Shown here piece by piece: positions 1-30,850 of a stretch of DNA of 30,850 bases. The position numbers and the translations under genes are program-made. The stretch is from the IMG/VR virus record IMGVR_UViG_2917875804_000003. The stretch is one strand, 5' to 3'. Origin of the DNA: a virus (lineage: Duplodnaviria > Heunggongvirae > Uroviricota > Caudoviricetes). The notes below the pieces were generated by a model, which saw only the letters and a program-made list of their open reading frames with translations, ran no database searches and was not told the DNA's origin. The stretch's first letter is position 1, and each line of letters starts with the position of its first letter.

Positions 1-174
1 ATGTACTTCGTTGGCAATAGCGATGACGATAAAGCAGCTGAGGCCACGAAGGTATGCTCTAACACAGACACTCAGAGAAACTTTGATCAGAACCTGCTCG
101 ATACGGTGACCAAATGCAAACCATTGATTGAACGTTTGGTAAAATATGAATTTAATGGACTGATGGAATGTTAG
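1..174 (+). CDS. hypothetical protein, 5'-truncated by window edge
   Basis: Open frame 1 from window start to TAG at 172-174; AT-rich; no recognisable motif. Confidence 0.2.
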   Translation: MYFVGNSDDDKAAEATKVCSNTDTQRNFDQNLLDTVTKCKPLIERLVKYEFNGLMEC

Positions 175-350
175 ATCCTATGTTTTCACATGACCGAATA
201 GATAGCAAAAAGAACCAGTTAACCTTCATTGGTGATAAGGTCAAATTCACCAATGGCTTCAATACCAAAATGACCATGACTTATGCTTGCACACTTGATC
301 TGCAAACTAAAGGAGTTGTGGACTTCAAGATTTCGGAAGAAAAGCTGTAG
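168..350 (+). CDS. hypothetical small protein (60 aa)
   Basis: ATG at 168, same strand as neighbouring small ORFs; AT-rich; no recognisable motif. Confidence 0.3.
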   Translation: MLDPMFSHDRIDSKKNQLTFIGDKVKFTNGFNTKMTMTYACTLDLQTKGVVDFKISEEKL

Positions 351-393
351 CAATTCCGCAGCCAGATTAACCTTCACTTAAGGATATTTGCAA

Positions 394-651
394 ATGGCTA
401 CCAGATACCAAACTGAGCTTGCCCTAAAGGCATTATTAACAGAGTTAAATCACTCAGGATGCGATTTGTATGAGCTAATTGAAAGAACAATTCTTCGTAT
501 GCAACAAGAACGTCTTTACATTAAAGAGGACTCTCACCGCGAAAGAGGTGGGGCAGAAGATGTCCTTTTCAGAGAAACAGAAAATCTCGTTGGTAAACGT
601 CCCCAGACTAAACCTGCTGACATTAATTCATTCGATATTGAAGATTTCTAA
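394..651 (+). CDS. hypothetical protein (~85 aa)
   Basis: ORF track 388..651 begins at TTG; first ATG at 394 has AAGGA about 10 nt upstream. No recognisable motif. Confidence 0.35.
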   Translation: MATRYQTELALKALLTELNHSGCDLYELIERTILRMQQERLYIKEDSHRERGGAEDVLFRETENLVGKRPQTKPADINSFDIEDF

Positions 652-696
652 TGTTAATTGCCGAATTATAATCAATTCGGCTTAAATATTTATTTC

Positions 697-1336
697 ATGG
701 ATATAAAAATGGACATATTTGAAAAGGGTAAGCTACTGTTATTTGTGCTTTTCATCATGCCCGGCTTTATTAGCATGAGAGTTTACAGACTCTTTCACCC
801 ATCTGCGGATTCTGACACTTCAAAAATTCTGATAGATGTAGTTTCTTATAGCTGCATAAATTATGCATTCCTATTAATACCAATATATCTAATTGAAGAA
901 AATGATATATTCCTTACTAGTCCAATCCTTTATTATTTATTTTATTTCTGTGTATTAATAGTTATCCCTGTACTACTACCTATGTTTTTAATATTTATTC
1001 GCAACTGTGAAATGGTCAAACGTTTCCTACCTCACCCTATTGGGCGTTCATGGGACTACTTTTTTTTCAACCAGACAATGCTGTTGGGTGCTGGTTACAC
1101 TTAAGAATGGTAAAAAATATGGTGGCTATTATGGTAGTGCTTCATTTGCATCAAGTAGTCCCGAACCGGAGCAAATATATCTAGAAAAACATTGGGCACT
1201 AGATGACAATTGTGATTTCGATCACGAACTAACCGATACATTAGGGATAATTATATTGACTAATGAAATAGAAAGTGTTGAATTTATTAAAGTACATAGT
1301 AGTAATCCTAGCAAAAGTGAGGCTGAAAATGGTTGA
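697..1336 (+). CDS. hypothetical membrane protein with C-terminal soluble domain, interrupted by a frame change in a T8 run (1060-1067)
   Basis: ORFs 658..1104 (hydrophobic, several predicted TM segments) and 1007..1336 join into one ~210-aa frame if the T8 run is read as T7. First ATG at 697. Confidence 0.4.
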
Positions 1337-1517
1337 AGATAAACCTGCTAACAATACAAGAACTATCCACGATGGCTGGCAACCTGTAGAAAAAGGTTAC
1401 CAGCCTACAAGCAGGCCAGACCAACAAAACAATGGCTACCAACCACCACGCCAGACCCAGCAAACCCAACATATTGCTCCGCCACCTAAAAAAACGTTAG
1501 TTAAAACCAGTTGTTGA
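1329..1517 (+). CDS. hypothetical small Gln/Pro-rich protein (62 aa)
   Basis: ATG at 1329 preceded by GAGG; low-complexity sequence with repeated YQP; may be spurious. Confidence 0.2.
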   Translation: MVEDKPANNTRTIHDGWQPVEKGYQPTSRPDQQNNGYQPPRQTQQTQHIAPPPKKTLVKTSC

Positions 1518-2154
1518 TGCCACAACTGATAAATTTCAGTTTTGAAATCATACACAAAGTATGTACAGCCCGCGTAGTTCCTATCTTCACGGGCTTCATG
1601 TTCTCATAACCATTCAGCACGAAAGTATCCTCCCCCTCCCGCATAAAACTAAATTACCAATTAAATATCAACACGGTAGAAACTTCATCATATCCACCGT
1701 CGATCCTTTCCACTGAAAAATACTGAAATTCTTTTCCATCTTTTCAGTTCACGTTAGCCACTAATCTCTCAGTAATGACGCTGTCCGTGTTGGTGGTTTG
1801 AAGAAAAAGCAAAATGAAAAAATTTTATCGATCCAGAAACCGCAGGCGGGTGCGGTGTAGCGCCGTTTTTGTCTGCGAAGGATTTATTTTGTCACCATAT
1901 CACCATACCAGCGCAACGCTACAATTCTGATCTTTTATACTTAGTGACCGAGTTATATTTGTTATTAAAGGGTTAATAATCCGTCTGCAGATGTCTATGA
2001 CAAGATAAGAAAGATGTTTTGTTAGTAATTCAACTAATTATTTGGGATTAAGTAGCCAATTATCAGTTCCGACCACATAACTTAATATTGTAGGCAGAAA
2101 ATCAGATCATTCTCATGTTACGATAATCCTCAGGATTATTAGGGAGAATAATTT

Positions 2155-2752
2155 ATGAGTAACAACAAAAAGTCTCATTATGAGGATATGAAGAAGTTGT
2201 TGTGCGCGGACATACTGCACAGCAGTAAAAAAATTCTCCTGGAGGAGAATCATACTACGTTGCTGGAGACAACCCGGACACAGATTCATGTGTTGGTGGA
2301 GGATAGCGAATTGCCTTTACTGTCAGGGAGGGAAATCAAGTATTAAGTGGGCACGAAGAATCCACCGGAGACTTGTTTCAAAATACAATACTGATATTGG
2401 ATTGGGGGCACAGATCGGGGAAAAATTCAAAATTTATCACTTCGTTGGAATAGTCATTTGTCCCCAGGCTGTGATTGGAAAAAATGTTCGTATCCGACAA
2501 AACACAACGATTGGATTAAAAACAGTTGAAGGAATCAAAGCCATCAGGATCGGAGACAATGTCGAGATTGGCGCAAATTCATGCATCATCGGTGATGATC
2601 TGACCATTGGTGATAATGTGACAATTGGTGCTATGTCATTCGTTAACCGAAACATTCCTGCCAATAGTGTCTTTATAACCCGCAGAGCCGCACAACTACT
2701 ACCGCTTGATACGCACTCCACCTCTAACTATCTTGAACTACACAACAACTGA
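2155..2752 (+). CDS. hexapeptide-repeat (left-handed beta-helix) acetyltransferase, WcaB/CysE-like; apparent frameshift near 2320-2346
   Basis: ATG 2155 with GGGAG RBS. C-terminal frame (2288..2752) has tandem [LIV]G-x-x-x-x hexapeptide repeats (IGDNVEIGANSCIIGDDLTIGDNVTIGAMSFV) that align by eye with the serine/colanic-acid acetyltransferase fold. N-terminal 63 aa are in a different frame. Confidence 0.55.
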
Positions 2753-5752: not shown

Positions 5753-6329
5753 TTCCAAGTATCTCCGGCCATACAATTTGCGGCGCATCTTCCGGTTGAA
5801 TACGGTTCAGTAAAACGCGGTATTTTTTCCAGGCGGTAAGCAGCAGTGCTTCTTCTTCGGTCGCCATGTCTAAATCAACGGCATCCTGCAATGTGGCAAT
5901 AGCGTCATTGGCCTGTTTAAGTAGTCTTTTCTTTTCGGCGTCTGCCTCGCTGACTAATGCAATTCGCATGGCATCCGCATCATCCACCCACGTCTTACCA
6001 TTCCATTTTTGCCAGGCATTAGCCGGTGCTAACGTGGTTGTCCCTTCCGGGTAAGCGCCTGGCTCGGAGATCACCAGTTCATTACCGTTTTCTGTATCAA
6101 ACAACACCTCACCACGATGATCCTCACGAGAAACCCATTTTTGCTTCTCTGAATCATAAATTGCCACAAACCCCGCTTTTATTACCGGTGGTTTTATTGT
6201 GGTGCAGTTGGCTGGCAGTCCGGTATACGCAGGTATAAAAGCGTCACCCAAACCAATAAATTCATTCGTGTCAGAACGCAGGTTATAAACGGTAACTGTT
6301 TGATCCGTTTCACTCATTTTAAAAGTCAT
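5742..6329 (-). CDS. tail fibre assembly protein (Tfa / gpG-like chaperone)
   Basis: C-terminus ...LQDAVDLDMATEEEALLLTAWKKYRVLLNRIQPEDAPQIVWPEI is the classic Tfa signature; immediately downstream of the tail fibre gene (TAATG overlap). Confidence 0.8.
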   Translation of the reverse strand: MTFKMSETDQTVTVYNLRSDTNEFIGLGDAFIPAYTGLPANCTTIKPPVIKAGFVAIYDSEKQKWVSREDHRGEVLFDTENGNELVISEPGAYPEGTTTLAPANAWQKWNGKTWVDDADAMRIALVSEADAEKKRLLKQANDAIATLQDAVDLDMATEEEALLLTAWKKYRVLLNRIQPEDAPQIVWPEILGNVA

Positions 6330-7904
6330 TATGCGAGTCTCACTATGTAGTTAAATACGATGTTTTTAACGGTCGTTTCTTCATTGCCCGACGCGGCGAC
6401 AGTAATGGTGTGACTGTGTGCGCCTATTGCTACGGTATGAGAGTGAGCTCCAATTCCTACAGAATGGCTATGTGCGCCAATCCCTACAATATGAGCATGG
6501 TTGCCAGCCAAATCCGTATTACCAGTTGTTACGTTATCGCCACCCTGACCTCTATTGATATCTCCGTTTTGAGTGGCCTGCCCCTTAACATATGTATGAG
6601 TATGTGCACCAGTTGTATCGGTTGTTTTGGTTCCGTAATCAAATGTGCTCACAGCTCTAGTGCCGTAGTCAAAGGATGATGTTGACTTCGTCCCCAGATC
6701 GGTACTGAATGCACTAGCGGTGTGGGCATGGGATTTATTGCCATCATCTTCATAGGACAAAACTGCACGGCCATCAGGTTTTCCTTTGATCGTCTGGCGG
6801 CGCATATCAGGAAGAACACCCGATGGGTATGCAATAGCCAGTCGCTGGTAAGCCACTGGATCAAACACCTGCCCCTGCATGATTGCGTGACCCGCTGGTG
6901 GAATATCAGTCGGCCAAGGAAATGGTACTCCAACCGGCACAACATCGCTAATGCTTAAGACCGCCAGCTCACCCAGCCCAAGATTTTTTCTGGCTTCCGC
7001 CTTGTCATTGATATCGGCAAGGTTTGCATCCTTACGCAAAAAATCGCTGCTGGCCTGTTGATCGCTCAGACTGCCTTTTGGCCTTAAATCCGTGATGTTG
7101 CCATCCACATCAATGCTGGCCACCGCAAATACAAAATGCTGAATACCGTTCTGAACATAATCAGTCAGATTTTCTACAACCGTGACTTTACTCTGTACAC
7201 TCCAGACACTGCTCAGAATCCCTGTCCAGCACACATCCAGCCAGACTTTTACCGACTTTGTCGTCACTGTAATATCCTGATTCGCATCCAGTGACACACG
7301 CAGTCCAGCCACATACCCCGTGCCTTTCGTGACATAAAACTGATTGCCGGTTTTGGCTACCAGATACCCGTTACCAAAAAAACGCCGCCGCGCCATAAAT
7401 ATCTGTATTTTCCAGACGCTGGCGCTCATCAATTCCGGCCAAACGTGCAGTAAAATCAATCTGCCAGGTTTCAGCGGGCGTATTAATCCCAGTTTCTGTT
7501 TGTGCACCGTTGTACTCCATCAGAAACGAGCGGGTCAGCACGTTCCCCTGTTGCCCTTCTTTTGTTTTCAGTTTCTGCTGTGCTGGTGCATGAACAATCA
7601 TTGCCAGCGTACCGCTGGCCTTATTGAGCAGACCAATCCAGTTAAAACTGAAATCCCCCACATCTGCGCCCAGCACTACGGAATAGACCACCCTGTTTTC
7701 ATCCACCACACCGGTACGGGTAACAGCTTGCCGGTGAACAATCTGTGCTGTCGGGGGCAACCCTTCATTGCGATCAACAGGGATATCCGCGTTTAAATCC
7801 GGCACACTGGCAAAAACAAATTCGTCCAGTAGTACCGGTTCACCTGTTGCGCCCTGCTGTGCTTTCCAGTTTTCAAACGCCAGTGTGATGGCTGTCTGTG
7901 ACAT
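6329..7904 (-). CDS. tail fibre protein, reading frame broken at an A7 run (7376-7382 on + strand; T7 in the coding sense)
   Basis: ORF 7371..7904 (conserved fibre N-terminus) and ORF 6329..7507 (distal part with HxH repeats) fuse in frame (...[19 protein letters not shown]...) if the run is 6 nt. Followed by Tfa. Confidence 0.75.
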
Positions 7905-22810: not shown

Positions 22811-23081
22811 TAACCATTTTGTGAACCTCTTCCGCAAGTTCTCCAATCCAGGCCAAAGCGATTGTTTTTTTCTCTCTGGTTACTTTCGTAATCATGGGCA
22901 ATTTTAGCTAATAATTCAATGCGTTCCAGCTGTGCCGACGCCTCCAAAAGATCCATTTAGCCCCCACAAGCAATAGTGACTGGATAAGTATCCAGTATAC
23001 CGTACACCGTAAAGCACGAATAGTGAAATTTAATTTCCTTCCATCTACTGAGAAATGCATGCATTTCACATATTTACCCTG

Positions 23082-26692: not shown

Positions 26693-27196
26693 TCATATCA
26701 GGCCGGTGGCATTGATTGTGACCAGCGCTACCGCAGCGGCCAGGACGGGCGTAGAGTGAAAACGACTTTCCACGGTATAAGCCAGCACGGATAAGCTACG
26801 AATTGCATCGCGGGCGCGATCCAGAATTTGAGTACGACGAGCGGCAGTCATATGGCAAGTTGATACGGCTTCCCCAGCAATCGCCCCCACGCACGCAGTG
26901 GCGCTTAGAGCACACAGTTGCATGTTGCCTTCAGTGGCATTATTCACAGGCACGGATGGCAGGCAGTTAATTTGGCTTAACATCCCATCCAGTAAACGTG
27001 CATCTTCGGTGTAATCCGTAATGGATATAAGCTCATCGCATGTTAAACGGTGCGGTTGCGCTGGATTTAGTTTGTTGCGCAGGATCTGCGGCCTTATACC
27101 AACGGCAACAGCCACATCTTCAAGATTGTGCTCAATTGCAAATGCTCGGCAAGCCGCATCAAATCGCGCATGTTTAGAGATCTGGTAATCAAACAT
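26693..27196 (-). CDS. cII: CII-type transcriptional activator (phage 186 CII family)
   Basis: MFDYQISKHARFDAACRAFAIEHN...LRNKLNPAQPHRLT...CLPSVPVNN closely resembles 186 CII as I recall it; 167 aa; follows Apl/Cox. Confidence 0.75.
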   Translation of the reverse strand: MFDYQISKHARFDAACRAFAIEHNLEDVAVAVGIRPQILRNKLNPAQPHRLTCDELISITDYTEDARLLDGMLSQINCLPSVPVNNATEGNMQLCALSATACVGAIAGEAVSTCHMTAARRTQILDRARDAIRSLSVLAYTVESRFHSTPVLAAAVALVTINATGLI

Positions 27197-27226: not shown

Positions 27227-27448
27227 TTACGCGTTAAGTGAAATATCACATTCACTTAAAGCCTGAATGGTTAGCGCGGCCATGTTGACCTCAACCAGGC
27301 CTTTCTTCTGCTTACCCTTAGGTTTAATGGGCAATTTCCCGTATTCGATCAGATTTCTGGCAGTTTCTTTGTTTGTACCAGTACGACGGCAATATTCGTC
27401 TAAAGGCAGGTAAGGTTCCGGTATGATGATTGTAATGCTCGGACGCAT
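27227..27448 (-). CDS. Apl/Cox-like excisionase / Cro-type regulator
   Basis: ~74-aa product from ATG 27448 (GGAG RBS); first gene of the operon divergent from cI; small basic DNA-binding-like protein. Confidence 0.55.
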   Translation of the reverse strand: MRPSITIIIPEPYLPLDEYCRRTGTNKETARNLIEYGKLPIKPKGKQKKGLVEVNMAALTIQALSECDISLNA

Positions 27449-27567: not shown

Positions 27568-28148
27568 GTGAAACTACAAATTGAATTTTCTCATGGCGGA
27601 TCAGAAGTCTTGGACAGAGTCATCCAGGCGTATGGTTTCAACACAAAATTAGCCCTGGCCGAACATCTTGATATAGCAAGTAGCAGCCTGGCTAATCGCT
27701 ACAAGAGGGATTTTTTTTCCAGCAGATATCGTTGTTAGATGCATGGCTGAAACGGGAGCAACTCTGGAATGGCTTGCGACTGGGCAAGGAAGAAAGTTTA
27801 ACGATGACGAATTAGACATCATGAAACTGCCGCGTAAGAAGATTGTGGACGGAAAACTCTATGATTCCGGTTTGCTAATGCTCGATAAGGTTACTTTTTT
27901 ACCTGGTAAGCCTTTACCACAGAATCCAATCTGTGTGATTGACAACGCAATGCAGTACATTGTTGATCAACACTTTCCCGAAGTTTACGACGATGATTGG
28001 TTAGTTGAAATTGAAGGAAAAACAAGTGTGAGAACCCTTACGCGCATCCCCGTAGGCAAAGTTCGAGTGAGTGGCGTTGGGATGGCATTTGATTGCGCTA
28101 TCGAAGATATAAAAAATTTTAGGTCGTATTATCTTAACTATAAAATAA
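27568..28148 (+). CDS. cI: CI repressor, phage 186 CI-like; frame interrupted twice at homopolymers (T8 27711-27718, A6 28111-28116)
   Basis: GTG 27568 with AAGGA RBS. With one base removed per run the product (~190 aa) reads VLDRVIQAYGFNTKLALAEHLDIASSSLANRYKRDFFPADIVVRCMAETGATLEWLATGQG ... WLVEIEGK ... DIKILGRIILTIK, paralleling 186 CI end to end. Confidence 0.75.
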
Positions 28149-28162
28149 TAAGGAAAATTATA

Positions 28163-28734
28163 ATGATAGATTACAAGACTGCATCTAAAGACCAATTAAA
28201 AGTAGAAATGAAACGATTGTCCGCCGCTGTTTCAGATACGCCATTTGGTACAAAAAAAAGAATTTTTTCATCTTCCCGAAGTTTTAAACACCGGCGAGGA
28301 ACCGCTTGGCATAGTAAGCGGTATGATGGATGGCAACACCTGGTTAATAACTTTAACTAACCAACGCGTTATCTTCCTCGATAAAGGGATGATATTTGGT
28401 GTTAAGCAGGTCGATATTAGCCTTCGTAACATTGTAAGCGTTGGCGGAAAGACTGGACTGATATTTGGTGAGATAATGATTTCAACAAGTGGACAGAATT
28501 ACACCATAAAAAAACGTTATAAAATCCTCCGTAATTCCTTTTACCAACCTTGTTAATGAGACAAGGAATAGTCTGGACAAGCCACAAGTTATCACCGCTC
28601 CTACAAGCTCCAACGAAAAATCTTCATTTGATGATGTCATGGATAAAATTGAACGTTTGGCTGAAATGAAAGCAGAAGGCATTCTTACTGAAGAAGAATT
28701 TCAGCAGCAAAAACAACGCATTTTAAACAGCTAA
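28163..28734 (+). CDS. cargo protein with bacterial PH-like domain and SHOCT-like C-terminal motif; frame interrupted at A8 (28252-28259) and A7 (28508-28514)
   Basis: ATG 28163 with AAGGAAA RBS. Middle frame ...LPEVLNTGEEPLGIVSGMMDGNTWLITLTNQRVIFLDKG...GEIMISTSG... has a bPH-like pattern; C-terminus ...DKIERLAEMKAEGILTEEEFQQQKQRILNS resembles SHOCT. AT-rich relative to flanking cI and int. Confidence 0.5.
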
Positions 28735-28737
28735 GCT

Positions 28738-29826
28738 ATGTCTGTAAGAAAATTAACAAATGGCCAGTGGATTGCCGATTTCTACACGGTGGATCGAAGC
28801 AATGGTAAAGCCGGTAAGCGTATTCGTAAAAAATTCGCTACAAAAGGTGAAGCCCTGGCCTACGAGAACTATACGCTTCAGCAAGTGGAGAACTCCCCCT
28901 GGCTTGGCGAGGGTAAAGACCTCCGTACTCTAAGCGACCTAATCAACATGTGGTACGAACGCCACGGCGTAGCTTTGCGCAACGGTCAAAAGCGTAAAGA
29001 CGCAATGACATGGGCGGCAGAGTGTATGGGATTCCCGCTGGCCACAGAGTTTAATGCTCAACTGTTTACAGCATACCGCGCAAAAAGGCTTGATGGGCAT
29101 TATGCCCGCACTAACAGAGTATCCAAGGTTTCCCCGAAAACAATGAACCTTGAACATGCTTACTTTCTGGCTATGTTCAATGAGCTTAAACGGATTGGAG
29201 AATGGTCAGCCCCTAACCCACTGGAAAACGTCAGACAGTATCGCACTGATGAAACCGAAATGGCTTTCCTCACTGCTGAAGAAATTGATCGGCTTTTGCT
29301 GGAATGCAAACGCAGTAAAGTAAGTTACTTAGAGTTAGTAGTAAAAATTTGCCTGGCGACCGGCGCAAGGTGGAATGAAGCGGCGACACTCAAAAGCTCC
29401 CAGATTGCTGGCGGAAAAGTCACCTTCATAAAAACAAAAGGGAAAAGGAACCGTACCATTCCCTTAGATGATGAACTTCTGGCTGAAATTTCGGAAACAA
29501 AAGGCGCTCTGTTTCCGAAGCCCTGCTATAACGCTTTTCGTTCCGCCCTGGAACGTGCAGGTATTGAATTGCCTTCTGGTCAGCTAACCCACGTATTACG
29601 CCATACATTTGCCAGCCACTTTATGATGAATGGCGGGAACATTCTGGTTCTGCAAAAAATTCTCGGCCACGCTGACATCACTATGACAATGCGTTATGCC
29701 CATTTCGCCCCAAGCCACCTTGAAGATGCTATGCGACTTAACCCCTTAAAAATGTCGCAAAAAATGTCGCTGCAGCTTAGAAATACTGCCGAATACTCAC
29801 AGACATTAACTAACGTAACTTATTGA
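28738..29826 (+). CDS. int: tyrosine integrase (P2/186 Int family)
   Basis: 362 aa; N-terminus MSVRKLTNGQW...KKFATKGEALAYENYTL parallels P2/186 Int; C-terminal catalytic region HVLRHTFASHFMMNGGNILVLQKILGHADITMTMRYAH (R...H-x-x-R...Y). Confidence 0.9.
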   Translation: MSVRKLTNGQWIADFYTVDRSNGKAGKRIRKKFATKGEALAYENYTLQQVENSPWLGEGKDLRTLSDLINMWYERHGVALRNGQKRKDAMTWAAECMGFPLATEFNAQLFTAYRAKRLDGHYARTNRVSKVSPKTMNLEHAYFLAMFNELKRIGEWSAPNPLENVRQYRTDETEMAFLTAEEIDRLLLECKRSKVSYLELVVKICLATGARWNEAATLKSSQIAGGKVTFIKTKGKRNRTIPLDDELLAEISETKGALFPKPCYNAFRSALERAGIELPSGQLTHVLRHTFASHFMMNGGNILVLQKILGHADITMTMRYAHFAPSHLEDAMRLNPLKMSQKMSLQLRNTAEYSQTLTNVTY

Positions 29827-29871
29827 TAACACTGTAAGTTATTGTTTTTCGTAGATAGTTGATGCTTTATA

Positions 29872-30346: not shown

Positions 30347-30850
30347 ATGAACTTAACCCTTAAAGAATCGCTTGTTTCCCGTAGCCGGGTTTTTAGCCCG
30401 TGGACTGCGTTCTACTTTTTACAGTCGCTATTGATTAACCTTGGTTTAGGTTATCCCTTTAGTTTTCTCTATACCGCCGCTTTTACTGCCGTTTTGCTTT
30501 TGTTATGGCGGATGTTGCCGCGTGTGCAAAAAACCTTAATAGGTGTCTGTTCGCTGGTGGCGGCCTGTTATTTTCCTTTTGCTCAGGCGTACGGTGCGCC
30601 TAACTTCAATACATTGCTGGCGCTGCATTCCACCAATATGGAAGAGTCGACCGAAATTCTTACGATCTTCCCGTGGTATAGCTATCTGGTCGGCTTATTT
30701 ATTTTTGCGCTCGGCGTGATTGCGATCAGGCGGAAAAAAGAGGATGAAAAAGCACGCTGGAATAAATTCGACACCCTGTGTCTGGTATTCAGTGTGGCGA
30801 CATTTTTTTGTCGCTCCGGTTCAAAATCTCGCCTGGGGCGGCGTATTTAA
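30347..30850 (+). CDS. opgE: phosphoethanolamine-transferase-type inner-membrane protein, N-terminal part (OpgE/YbiP-like), 3'-truncated by window edge
   Basis: MNLTLKESLVSRSRVFSPWTAFYFLQSLLINLGLGYPF... multi-TM N-terminus that I recognise as E. coli YbiP/OpgE; open to the window end; same orientation as mntS, as in the E. coli K-12 order. Confidence 0.6.
   Translation: MNLTLKESLVSRSRVFSPWTAFYFLQSLLINLGLGYPFSFLYTAAFTAVLLLLWRMLPRVQKTLIGVCSLVAACYFPFAQAYGAPNFNTLLALHSTNMEESTEILTIFPWYSYLVGLFIFALGVIAIRRKKEDEKARWNKFDTLCLVFSVATFFCRSGSKSRLGRRI

Follow-up and report, generated by a model that had tools for sequence, protein, structure and literature searches.

The gene considered here lies between the repressor gene cI and the integrase gene int of a prophage, at positions 28163–28734 of IMG/VR virus record IMGVR_UViG_2917875804_000003, and encodes a protein in which a PH domain of the Pfam family bPH_3 is followed by a short SHOCT domain; it is called the bPH_3-SHOCT gene below. 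The window, i.e., the whole stretch of 30,850 nucleotides (nt) that was analysed, is a P2/186-type prophage, with positions 6000–27287 ~93% identical to Escherichia phages ESSI2_ev015, ev129 and ev040 (Peduoviridae, Quadragintavirus) and with a prophage/host junction near 29864, upstream of mntS. As the host flank (mntS, opgE) is only ~91% identical to all 5,422 E. coli genomes that match it, the host is, to judge by this flank, an Escherichia lineage other than E. coli. The lysogeny module is laid out as follows:

26693–27196, minus strand: CII-like activator gene (Phage_CP76), which marks the module as 186-type
27227–27448, minus strand: Apl/Cox-like excisionase-repressor gene, first gene of the divergent lytic operon; an apl homologue is kept upstream of cI in the survey of related loci described below
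between the Apl/Cox-like gene and cI: the pR/pL switch region
27568–28148, plus strand: 186-type cI repressor gene, stop codon at 28146–28148 (Phage_CI_repr and Phage_CI_C domains in an intact relative)
28150–28154, plus strand: Shine-Dalgarno-like AAGGA, as read from the sequence
28163–28734, plus strand: bPH_3-SHOCT gene, 189 amino acids (aa) after deletion of two surplus A's
28738 (ATG) to about 29780, plus strand: tyrosine integrase gene, int (Int_N and Phage_integrase domains in a relative)

The end coordinate of int is approximate because artefactual +1 insertions at 29752 and 29764 distort its 3′ end. cI is presumed to be the first gene of the lysogenic operon.

An initial annotation, made from the letters of the window, had described a ~570-bp gene with a ribosome binding site in this interval, co-oriented with cI and int and more AT-rich than either, and in these respects it was right. 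The ATG at 28163 follows the AAGGA by 8 nt and the cI stop by 14 nt, the TAA at 28732–28734 stands 3 nt ahead of the int ATG, and all three genes are on the plus strand. With a GC content of 0.381, where cI has 0.418, int 0.472 and the phage backbone 0.499, the gene is among the lowest 4.6% of 572-bp windows; its AT-richness is genuine, if modest. No terminator-like sites flank it, and promoter-like sites are no more frequent than chance expects, so that it does not have the promoter and terminator of its own by which a classical moron is recognised. Instead, it appears embedded within the cI-int operon.

In the window as given, the reading frame of the gene shifts twice, and with one A fewer in each of two runs a single 189-aa protein is obtained. 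The two runs are:

28252–28259, plus strand: A8, first frame break; A7 in relatives, with three independent 98%-identical contigs one A shorter; artefact
28508–28514, plus strand: A7, second frame break; A6 in relatives; artefact

The corrected readings, GTKKEFFHLPE at the first run and YTIKNVIKSSVIPFTN at the second, agree with all homologues. Could the gene nevertheless be a decayed remnant, truly disrupted at these two homopolymers? The two breaks themselves are what speaks for it. However, in comparison with three independent contigs from other samples, each ~98% identical to the window, the homopolymer indels (at 22865, 27711, 28111, 28252, 28508, 29752 and 29764) are without exception +1 in the window, and the bPH_3-SHOCT gene is far from being their sole victim. 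cI is broken by an artefactual +1 at T8 27711–27718 and by another at the A run at 28111, int is hit too, and even host opgE has T7 at 30803 where E. coli has T6; against ESSI2_ev015 there are further +1 insertions at 7376, 12697 and 19468. Because all these indels go in one direction and strike cI, int and a host gene as well, the frame breaks are best read as systematic homopolymer over-calling, a pattern of base-calling error and not of selective decay. The two extra A's aside, the repaired protein is 99% identical to an intact 189-aa protein (P0001) found on three contigs from other samples and encoded there between a 192-aa cI and a 346-aa int, and Salmonella contig OR850877 has an intact orthologue between cI and int, 80% identical by tblastn. 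The ~190-aa reading that had been reconstructed across the two breaks is thereby vindicated, and decay, which had been left as a possibility, is most improbable. The practical upshot is that the apparent pseudogenes of the window are homopolymer sequencing errors, and those that coincide with runs of at least 5 identical bases are to be distrusted.

What kind of protein is it? Its parts are:

residues 1–40: N-terminal helix and conserved FGTKKEFxHLP motif
residues 41–132 (about 28284–28560, plus strand): PH domain
residues 141–153: variable, disordered linker
residues 160–187 (about 28642–28725, plus strand): SHOCT two-helix domain

Pfam bPH_3 (PF14470) is matched over its full profile by residues 41–132 (E 1.8e-18, 67.2 bits, gathering cutoff 23) and Pfam SHOCT (PF09851) by residues 160–187 (E 3.1e-9, 36.7 bits, gathering cutoff 27), and the whole protein (residues 1–189) falls into PHROGs family phrog_2700 (E 6.1e-72), annotated there as ‘unknown function’. 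An AlphaFold2 model built on 83 homologues (predicted local distance difference test, pLDDT, 87.7) has an N-terminal helix at residues 9–22, two short helices across the conserved motif FGTKKEFFHLPEVL, a seven-strand PH sandwich with strands spanning 47–119 and a capping helix at 120–138, and a SHOCT hairpin made of helices 154–170 and 176–188. With this model Foldseek retrieves the bacterial PH domains 3DCX and 3HSA together with eukaryotic PH domains including that of GRK2; no solved relative is detectable by sequence search, the PH matches being at the level of fold. Profile, model and fold comparison thus agree on the PH-like plus SHOCT-like architecture that had been discerned earlier, with one amendment: the PH model then named for checking was bPH_2/DUF304, and the family that matches is bPH_3, bPH_1 and bPH_2 appearing only below threshold in a distant homologue. 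Invariant residues are K32, E33 and P38 of the pre-PH motif, W60, R68, the L72-K74-G75 of an FLDKG motif, and F126/N128. Neither a transmembrane (TM) segment nor a signal peptide was found in the protein, no 19-residue window of which reaches a Kyte-Doolittle value of 1.6 (maximum 1.21). Elsewhere in the family the domains are fused to ankyrin repeats, Zn-ribbons or further PH domains in tandem and, in one giant protein, to WG/LprI repeats. As many as 7 bPH_3 units in tandem, or else fusions, are seen in P0124 (1093 aa), P0126 (605 aa), P0131, P0142 and P0172.

The family is widespread. A profile search gave 239 representatives of 50%-identity clusters at E ≤ 1e-30 and 1,360 at E ≤ 1e-10, and it is common in Citrobacter, Enterobacter, Cronobacter, Serratia, Pantoea, Erwinia, Yersinia and others. 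Among 5,426 complete E. coli genomes the gene occurs in just one, that of strain EC22, where it is annotated ‘PH domain-containing protein’ and again lies between CI and integrase. The order cI, gene, int holds in ~75 of the 79 IMG/VR loci that encode a homologue, with gaps of ~10 and 2–3 nt, and in Yersinia prophages too. The median ratio of nonsynonymous to synonymous substitution rates (dN/dS), over 53 unique orthologues, is 0.052 for the bPH_3-SHOCT gene, 0.050 for int and 0.084 for cI. Given an order so conserved and a dN/dS so close to that of int, the gene is, as far as sequence comparison can tell, a component that is stably inherited, and kept under strong constraint, throughout a clade of enterobacterial 186-like lysogeny modules.

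Farther afield, homologues ~50% identical stand at the distal end of the repressor operon in P2-like prophages of Pseudomonas aeruginosa and Cupriavidus. In one P. aeruginosa P2-like prophage (L006:5502–8189) the bPH-SHOCT homologue is preceded by a gene for a 164-aa secreted protein with four Cys-rich repeats and followed by a HipA_2-like kinase and DUF3037 pair, with a weak match to the PADLOC candidate PDC-M66 A/B; several accessory genes seem to be housed in that repressor operon. Among GenBank phages, tblastn turned up full-length, ~35%-identical homologues in 49 records, including many S. aureus temperate phages, Lactococcus phages TP901-1 and bIL285, and phages of Streptococcus, Lactobacillus, Blautia and Moraxella, and Pfam verified bPH_3 plus SHOCT in every Gram-positive or Moraxella phage homologue examined. 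Their settings are as follows:

TP901-1: cI, ORF3, ORF2 (the homologue), int, all co-oriented
S. pyogenes Javan526: repressor, gene, integrase
L. gasseri JNU_P11: helix-turn-helix gene, 152-aa gene, gene, integrase
S. aureus phiETA2: cI-like gene, M78 peptidase, gene, ORF3, (xis), int
Blautia Montmirail: regulator, two small genes, gene, 343-aa gene, integrase
Moraxella phage Mcat13 (L173:3537–4088): gene among tail and structural genes, an exception to the lysogeny-module position

On this comparison the usual home of the bPH_3 plus SHOCT family (PHROG 2700) is the repressor-to-integrase operon of temperate phages.

Is the gene needed there? ESSI2_ev015, the closest named phage, has cI and int directly abutting, as had been expected of relatives, and the slot is empty. 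Its cI is 69% and its int 57% identical to those of the present prophage type, and because these values fall within the range of loci that carry the gene, gain, loss and replacement of the slot gene probably happen within the clade. A survey anchored on ESSI2_ev015 cI yielded 38 loci with both cI and int anchors, in which the interval was found as follows:

empty: 9 loci
bPH-SHOCT gene: 12 loci
gene for a 289–304-aa AT-rich protein (GC 0.33–0.37), the commonest alternative cargo: about 14 loci (L177–L185, L197, L206, L209, L210 and L212; e.g., L177:4093–4989, L206:1289–2203)
gene for a 236-aa protein of unknown function: 1 locus (L190:4091–4801)
three-gene insert: 1 locus (L199:768–2660), with a 369-aa protein of unknown function, a 105-aa DUF4325/STAS-like protein and a 155-aa protein of unknown function
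second tandem cI-like gene (196 aa): 2 loci, L216 and L217 (L216:4113–4703)

The alternative cargos have a GC content of 0.33–0.41. The cI-int interval is a variable accessory slot, since related prophages have it empty or filled with other AT-rich cargo. In the 289–304-aa protein, the N-terminal part is matched by a PADLOC TIR effector model (E 4e-9 and 3e-7) and, weakly, by Nuc_deoxyrib_tr and CAP12-PCTIR_TIR; the protein has the look of a TIR-like candidate that would serve defence as a single gene. In K139-like P2-related phages the cI-int interval was identified as a hotspot of defence genes by Rousset et al. 2022 (PMC9122126); for E. coli P2 the classical hotspots have other locations, one from GpA to GpQ and another in the tail region. 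That hotspot and the TIR-like occupant bear out the initial annotation in its view that the slot is typical of exclusion or defence cargo, and the survey of the interval in relatives, which it had advised, did reveal gene turnover. It had also spoken of a moron: in a slot that is variable and cargo that is AT-rich this survives the 38-locus survey, but an order kept in ~75 of 79 loci and a dN/dS of 0.05 are not those of a sporadic gene.

A second AT-rich block (GC 0.33–0.39) occupies window positions 1–2300, beyond the baseplate gene. In related E. coli genomes a DUF6338 family protein and hypothetical proteins are annotated there, and the open reading frames are likewise interrupted at homopolymers (T8 at 1060, A7 at 1488 and at 2227); it is probably another cargo region.

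Might the gene then serve the lysogeny switch itself, modulating integrase or excision, repressor stability or induction, for instance by passing a signal from the membrane or envelope on to that switch? The position between repressor and integrase is kept in unrelated Gram-positive and Gram-negative phage lineages, the stop codon is 2–3 nt from, or overlaps, the int start, purifying selection equals that on int in strength, and the Gram-positive phage homologues often adjoin an M78 peptidase of the ImmA/IrrE type of repressor control, all of which such an accessory would explain. However, relatives whose cI and int are similarly diverged do without it, and because their cI and int simply abut, the gene would be dispensable for switch and integration alike. 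The slot, moreover, alternatively holds unrelated cargo, the TIR-like protein included; members of the family are also found outside lysogeny modules, in the tail region of Mcat13 and in bacterial loci where they are paired with a gene for a small TM protein (see below); and phage resistance is the one phenotype on record for a homologue. A part in lysogeny control is considered quite unlikely.

That phenotype comes from TP901-1, where it is that of a gene pair, and it corrects the earlier statement that no exclusion role was known for a bPH-SHOCT protein. TP901-1 ORF2 is 35% identical to the window protein over 167 aa (BLASTP, E 8e-26), shares with it the bPH_3 plus SHOCT architecture, a length of ~180–190 aa and the N-terminal FGTKKE..LP motif, and occupies the same place in the module, the repressor-integrase interval, co-oriented with both. 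Ruiz-Cruz et al. 2020 (PMC7693887) reported TP901-1 Orf2/3 to be 100% identical to SieF7/2AB of the L. lactis F7/2 prophage, and found that cloned orf2/3 lowered both the efficiency of plating and the plaque size of skunaviruses 62601 and 66901, and conferred complete resistance to P087 and WRP3. SieF7/2AB is, on their account, an exclusion system of two components, whose first description was by McGrath et al. 2002, and consists of one component that is ‘membrane-associated’ and another that has a metalloprotease-like zinc-binding motif. TP901-1 ORF3 is a Peptidase_M78 in Pfam, zinc-metallopeptidase-like, and therefore ORF2 would be the other, ‘membrane-associated’, component. The label is to be read cautiously, because ORF2 has no convincing TM helix, its sole hydrophobic stretch aligning to strands of the PH domain. 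The upstream neighbour of the window gene is the 186-type cI itself and not an M78 peptidase. With the M78 partner absent, the window gene is, by homology, a relative of TP901-1 ORF2 and not the full SieF7/2AB system, and resistance to heterologous phages is a phenotype of the lactococcal pair that is carried over to it by analogy.

Where in the cell would such a protein act? A tether to the inner leaflet of the membrane is what SHOCT-like domains are predicted to provide, and they are tied by genomic context to envelope-stress (PSP) systems and membrane localisation (PMC11237479). In 80 loci drawn from one-genome-per-species contigs, there is in 16 a conserved gene for a ~90-aa protein, with three predicted TM segments (3-TM), that starts 0–12 nt downstream of the bPH-SHOCT gene (L034, L035, L042, L044, L045, L047, L049, L050, L052, L056, L058, L064, L065, L070, L071 and L084). 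The taxa are Alpha-, Beta-, Gamma- and Epsilonproteobacteria, Desulfobacterota-type metagenome-assembled genomes and a spirochaete. The 3-TM protein has a C-terminal motif, W(Q/H)xS..Y...E..I...F.F.D, and no Pfam or PADLOC match; together with bPH-SHOCT it may form a two-gene module. This partner elsewhere, and the published prediction of SHOCT tethering to the inner leaflet, suggest that the window protein acts at the membrane. The same facts can be turned to another account, in which the gene is one of lysogenic conversion unrelated to phages, conferring for example tolerance of membrane or envelope stress by way of a membrane-proximal PH/SHOCT scaffold. The PSP context of SHOCT-like domains would fit this, as would a 3-TM partner in chromosomal loci of many phyla and a protein to which defence models have no match. 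Against it are the strong enrichment of the family in temperate-phage lysogeny modules, the sharing of the slot with a TIR-like defence-type gene, and the phage resistance that the homologous pair confers, and we assign to conversion of this sort a low probability.

In the explanation that we favour, and hold to be moderately probable, the gene, intact and expressed in the lysogen, is an accessory of its 186/ESSI-2-type (Peduoviridae) prophage and has an anti-phage role, protecting the lysogen from heterologous superinfection. From the layout, the lysogenic promoter would drive it along with cI and int, and its translation would start from a ribosome binding site of its own. By its sequence, with neither signal peptide nor TM segment, the product is a soluble cytoplasmic protein, which its PH domain and SHOCT hairpin may bring to the inner side of the cytoplasmic membrane, perhaps in oligomeric form, a step that draws on proposals for PH and SHOCT domains and on the 3-TM partner gene in non-phage loci. 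There it could block genome entry or early establishment of incoming phages, in the manner of superinfection exclusion (Sie), or else trigger a membrane-based abortive infection; for this last step the proposed analogy is with TP901-1 Orf2/3 (= SieF7/2AB).

A number of points weigh against an anti-phage role. The phage-resistance phenotype of the family comes from Gram-positive members alone, and in TP901-1 it was measured for orf2 and orf3 jointly only, the two components of SieF7/2AB being synergistic according to McGrath 2002 as cited in PMC7693887. Neither possible partner is to hand: a tblastn search of the window with two M78 partners gave a best E of 0.65, and the window has no 3-TM partner gene. 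No effector or enzymatic domain is recognisable in the window protein, and no enzymatic effector is among the fusion partners of bPH_3 family members. PADLOC-DB 2.0 models match neither the window protein nor P0120, TP901-1 ORF2 or phiETA2 ORF4, and no NCBIfam model fits the window protein. The action at the membrane is a prediction, and the one experiment that tried SHOCT for oligomerisation had a negative outcome (PMC3581485). Finally, the tight coupling to int and the strict position in unrelated phages also fit a role in lysogeny.

If two components are the rule, is the gene here one half of a system and, alone, inert? The synergy just mentioned, the 3-TM partner in 16 of 80 loci and the want of both M78 and 3-TM genes in the window are what such a half would lead one to expect. 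However, the solo gene persists in dozens of enterobacterial prophages, and the purifying selection on it is strong, which is unlike an inert remnant, and in Javan526 nothing is annotated between the repressor and the bPH-SHOCT gene, so that no separate peptidase gene stands at that spot. A partner could, moreover, be encoded by the host. Inertness is judged very unlikely.

A more ambitious version of the anti-phage explanation would make bPH_3-SHOCT proteins a pan-bacterial anti-phage module that defence catalogues have overlooked. Its core would be a cytoplasmic, membrane-proximal PH/SHOCT sensor, paired in chromosomal loci with the ~90-aa 3-TM protein as effector. Temperate phages, from Firmicutes to Proteobacteria, would repeatedly have captured the module into their repressor-integrase operon, where the captured form, expressed from the prophage, would work alone in exclusion or abortive infection. 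A conserved step of phage genome entry, or a perturbation of the membrane, might be what the invariant FGTKKE..LP / FLDKG surface recognises. Taken as one joint claim that includes sensor, 3-TM effector, phage capture and recognition surface, this is speculative and rather doubtful.

Why should so small a gene matter? If it does by itself protect lysogens, a small and widespread family joins the anti-phage repertoire, and its absence from PADLOC and its rarity in E. coli are possible reasons for its having been overlooked. A lactococcal ‘Sie’ observation of 2002 would be connected to Gram-negative P2/186-type prophages, and bacterial PH and SHOCT domains would gain a concrete, testable role. 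The cI-int interval of this enterobacterial prophage clade is also a compact cargo slot that can be mined for more candidates. With a position conserved across phyla, absence from catalogues, rarity in E. coli and a possible 3-TM partner, the gene is a cheap and worthwhile experimental target.

How does it compare with systems already known? Identity with a known defence system was considered and rejected, PADLOC and NCBIfam having no match for the window protein or its homologues. In fold, the nearest comparison is with the bacterial PH domains 3DCX and 3HSA (bPH_1/DUF1696; Xu et al. 2010), which share the 7-strand sandwich and C-terminal helix with the window model (Foldseek E 5e-5 to 1e-4, target-normalised TM-score 0.6–0.7). 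However, they are bPH_1 and not bPH_3, are 14–20% identical, and have no SHOCT domain, no FGTKKE motif and no phage context. A search of the literature on bacterial PH domain proteins for prophage or anti-phage activity found nothing relevant. In setting, Sie2009-type proteins (Tuc2009 orf2) are comparable, as they come from the same integrase-repressor slot, are lysogen-expressed and have a phage-exclusion phenotype, but Sie2009 is anchored by an N-terminal TM segment and includes a tRNA_anti-like/OB domain, where the window protein has no TM segment. Homology between them was looked for and rejected (BLASTP of Sie2009 with TP901-1 ORF2, E 0.81; tblastn with the window, best E 1.1). The K139/PhiO18P-like P2-related phages of Vibrionaceae likewise have variable cargo, including defence systems, in the cI-int interval, though both the phage subgroup and the host family differ from those of the window prophage, and the text and supplements of Rousset 2022 (PMC9122126) have no bPH, SHOCT or PH-domain entries. 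TP901-1, with a Gram-positive host, and a siphovirus with a serine integrase, differs in these respects from the window prophage, but it is the system that shares with it protein architecture, motif and place in the module. By analogy with these systems, the bPH_3-SHOCT gene would fall into a familiar class, that of exclusion or defence genes in prophage lysogeny modules, and its slot into a type of hotspot already described, and as an anti-phage candidate it is not without precedent.

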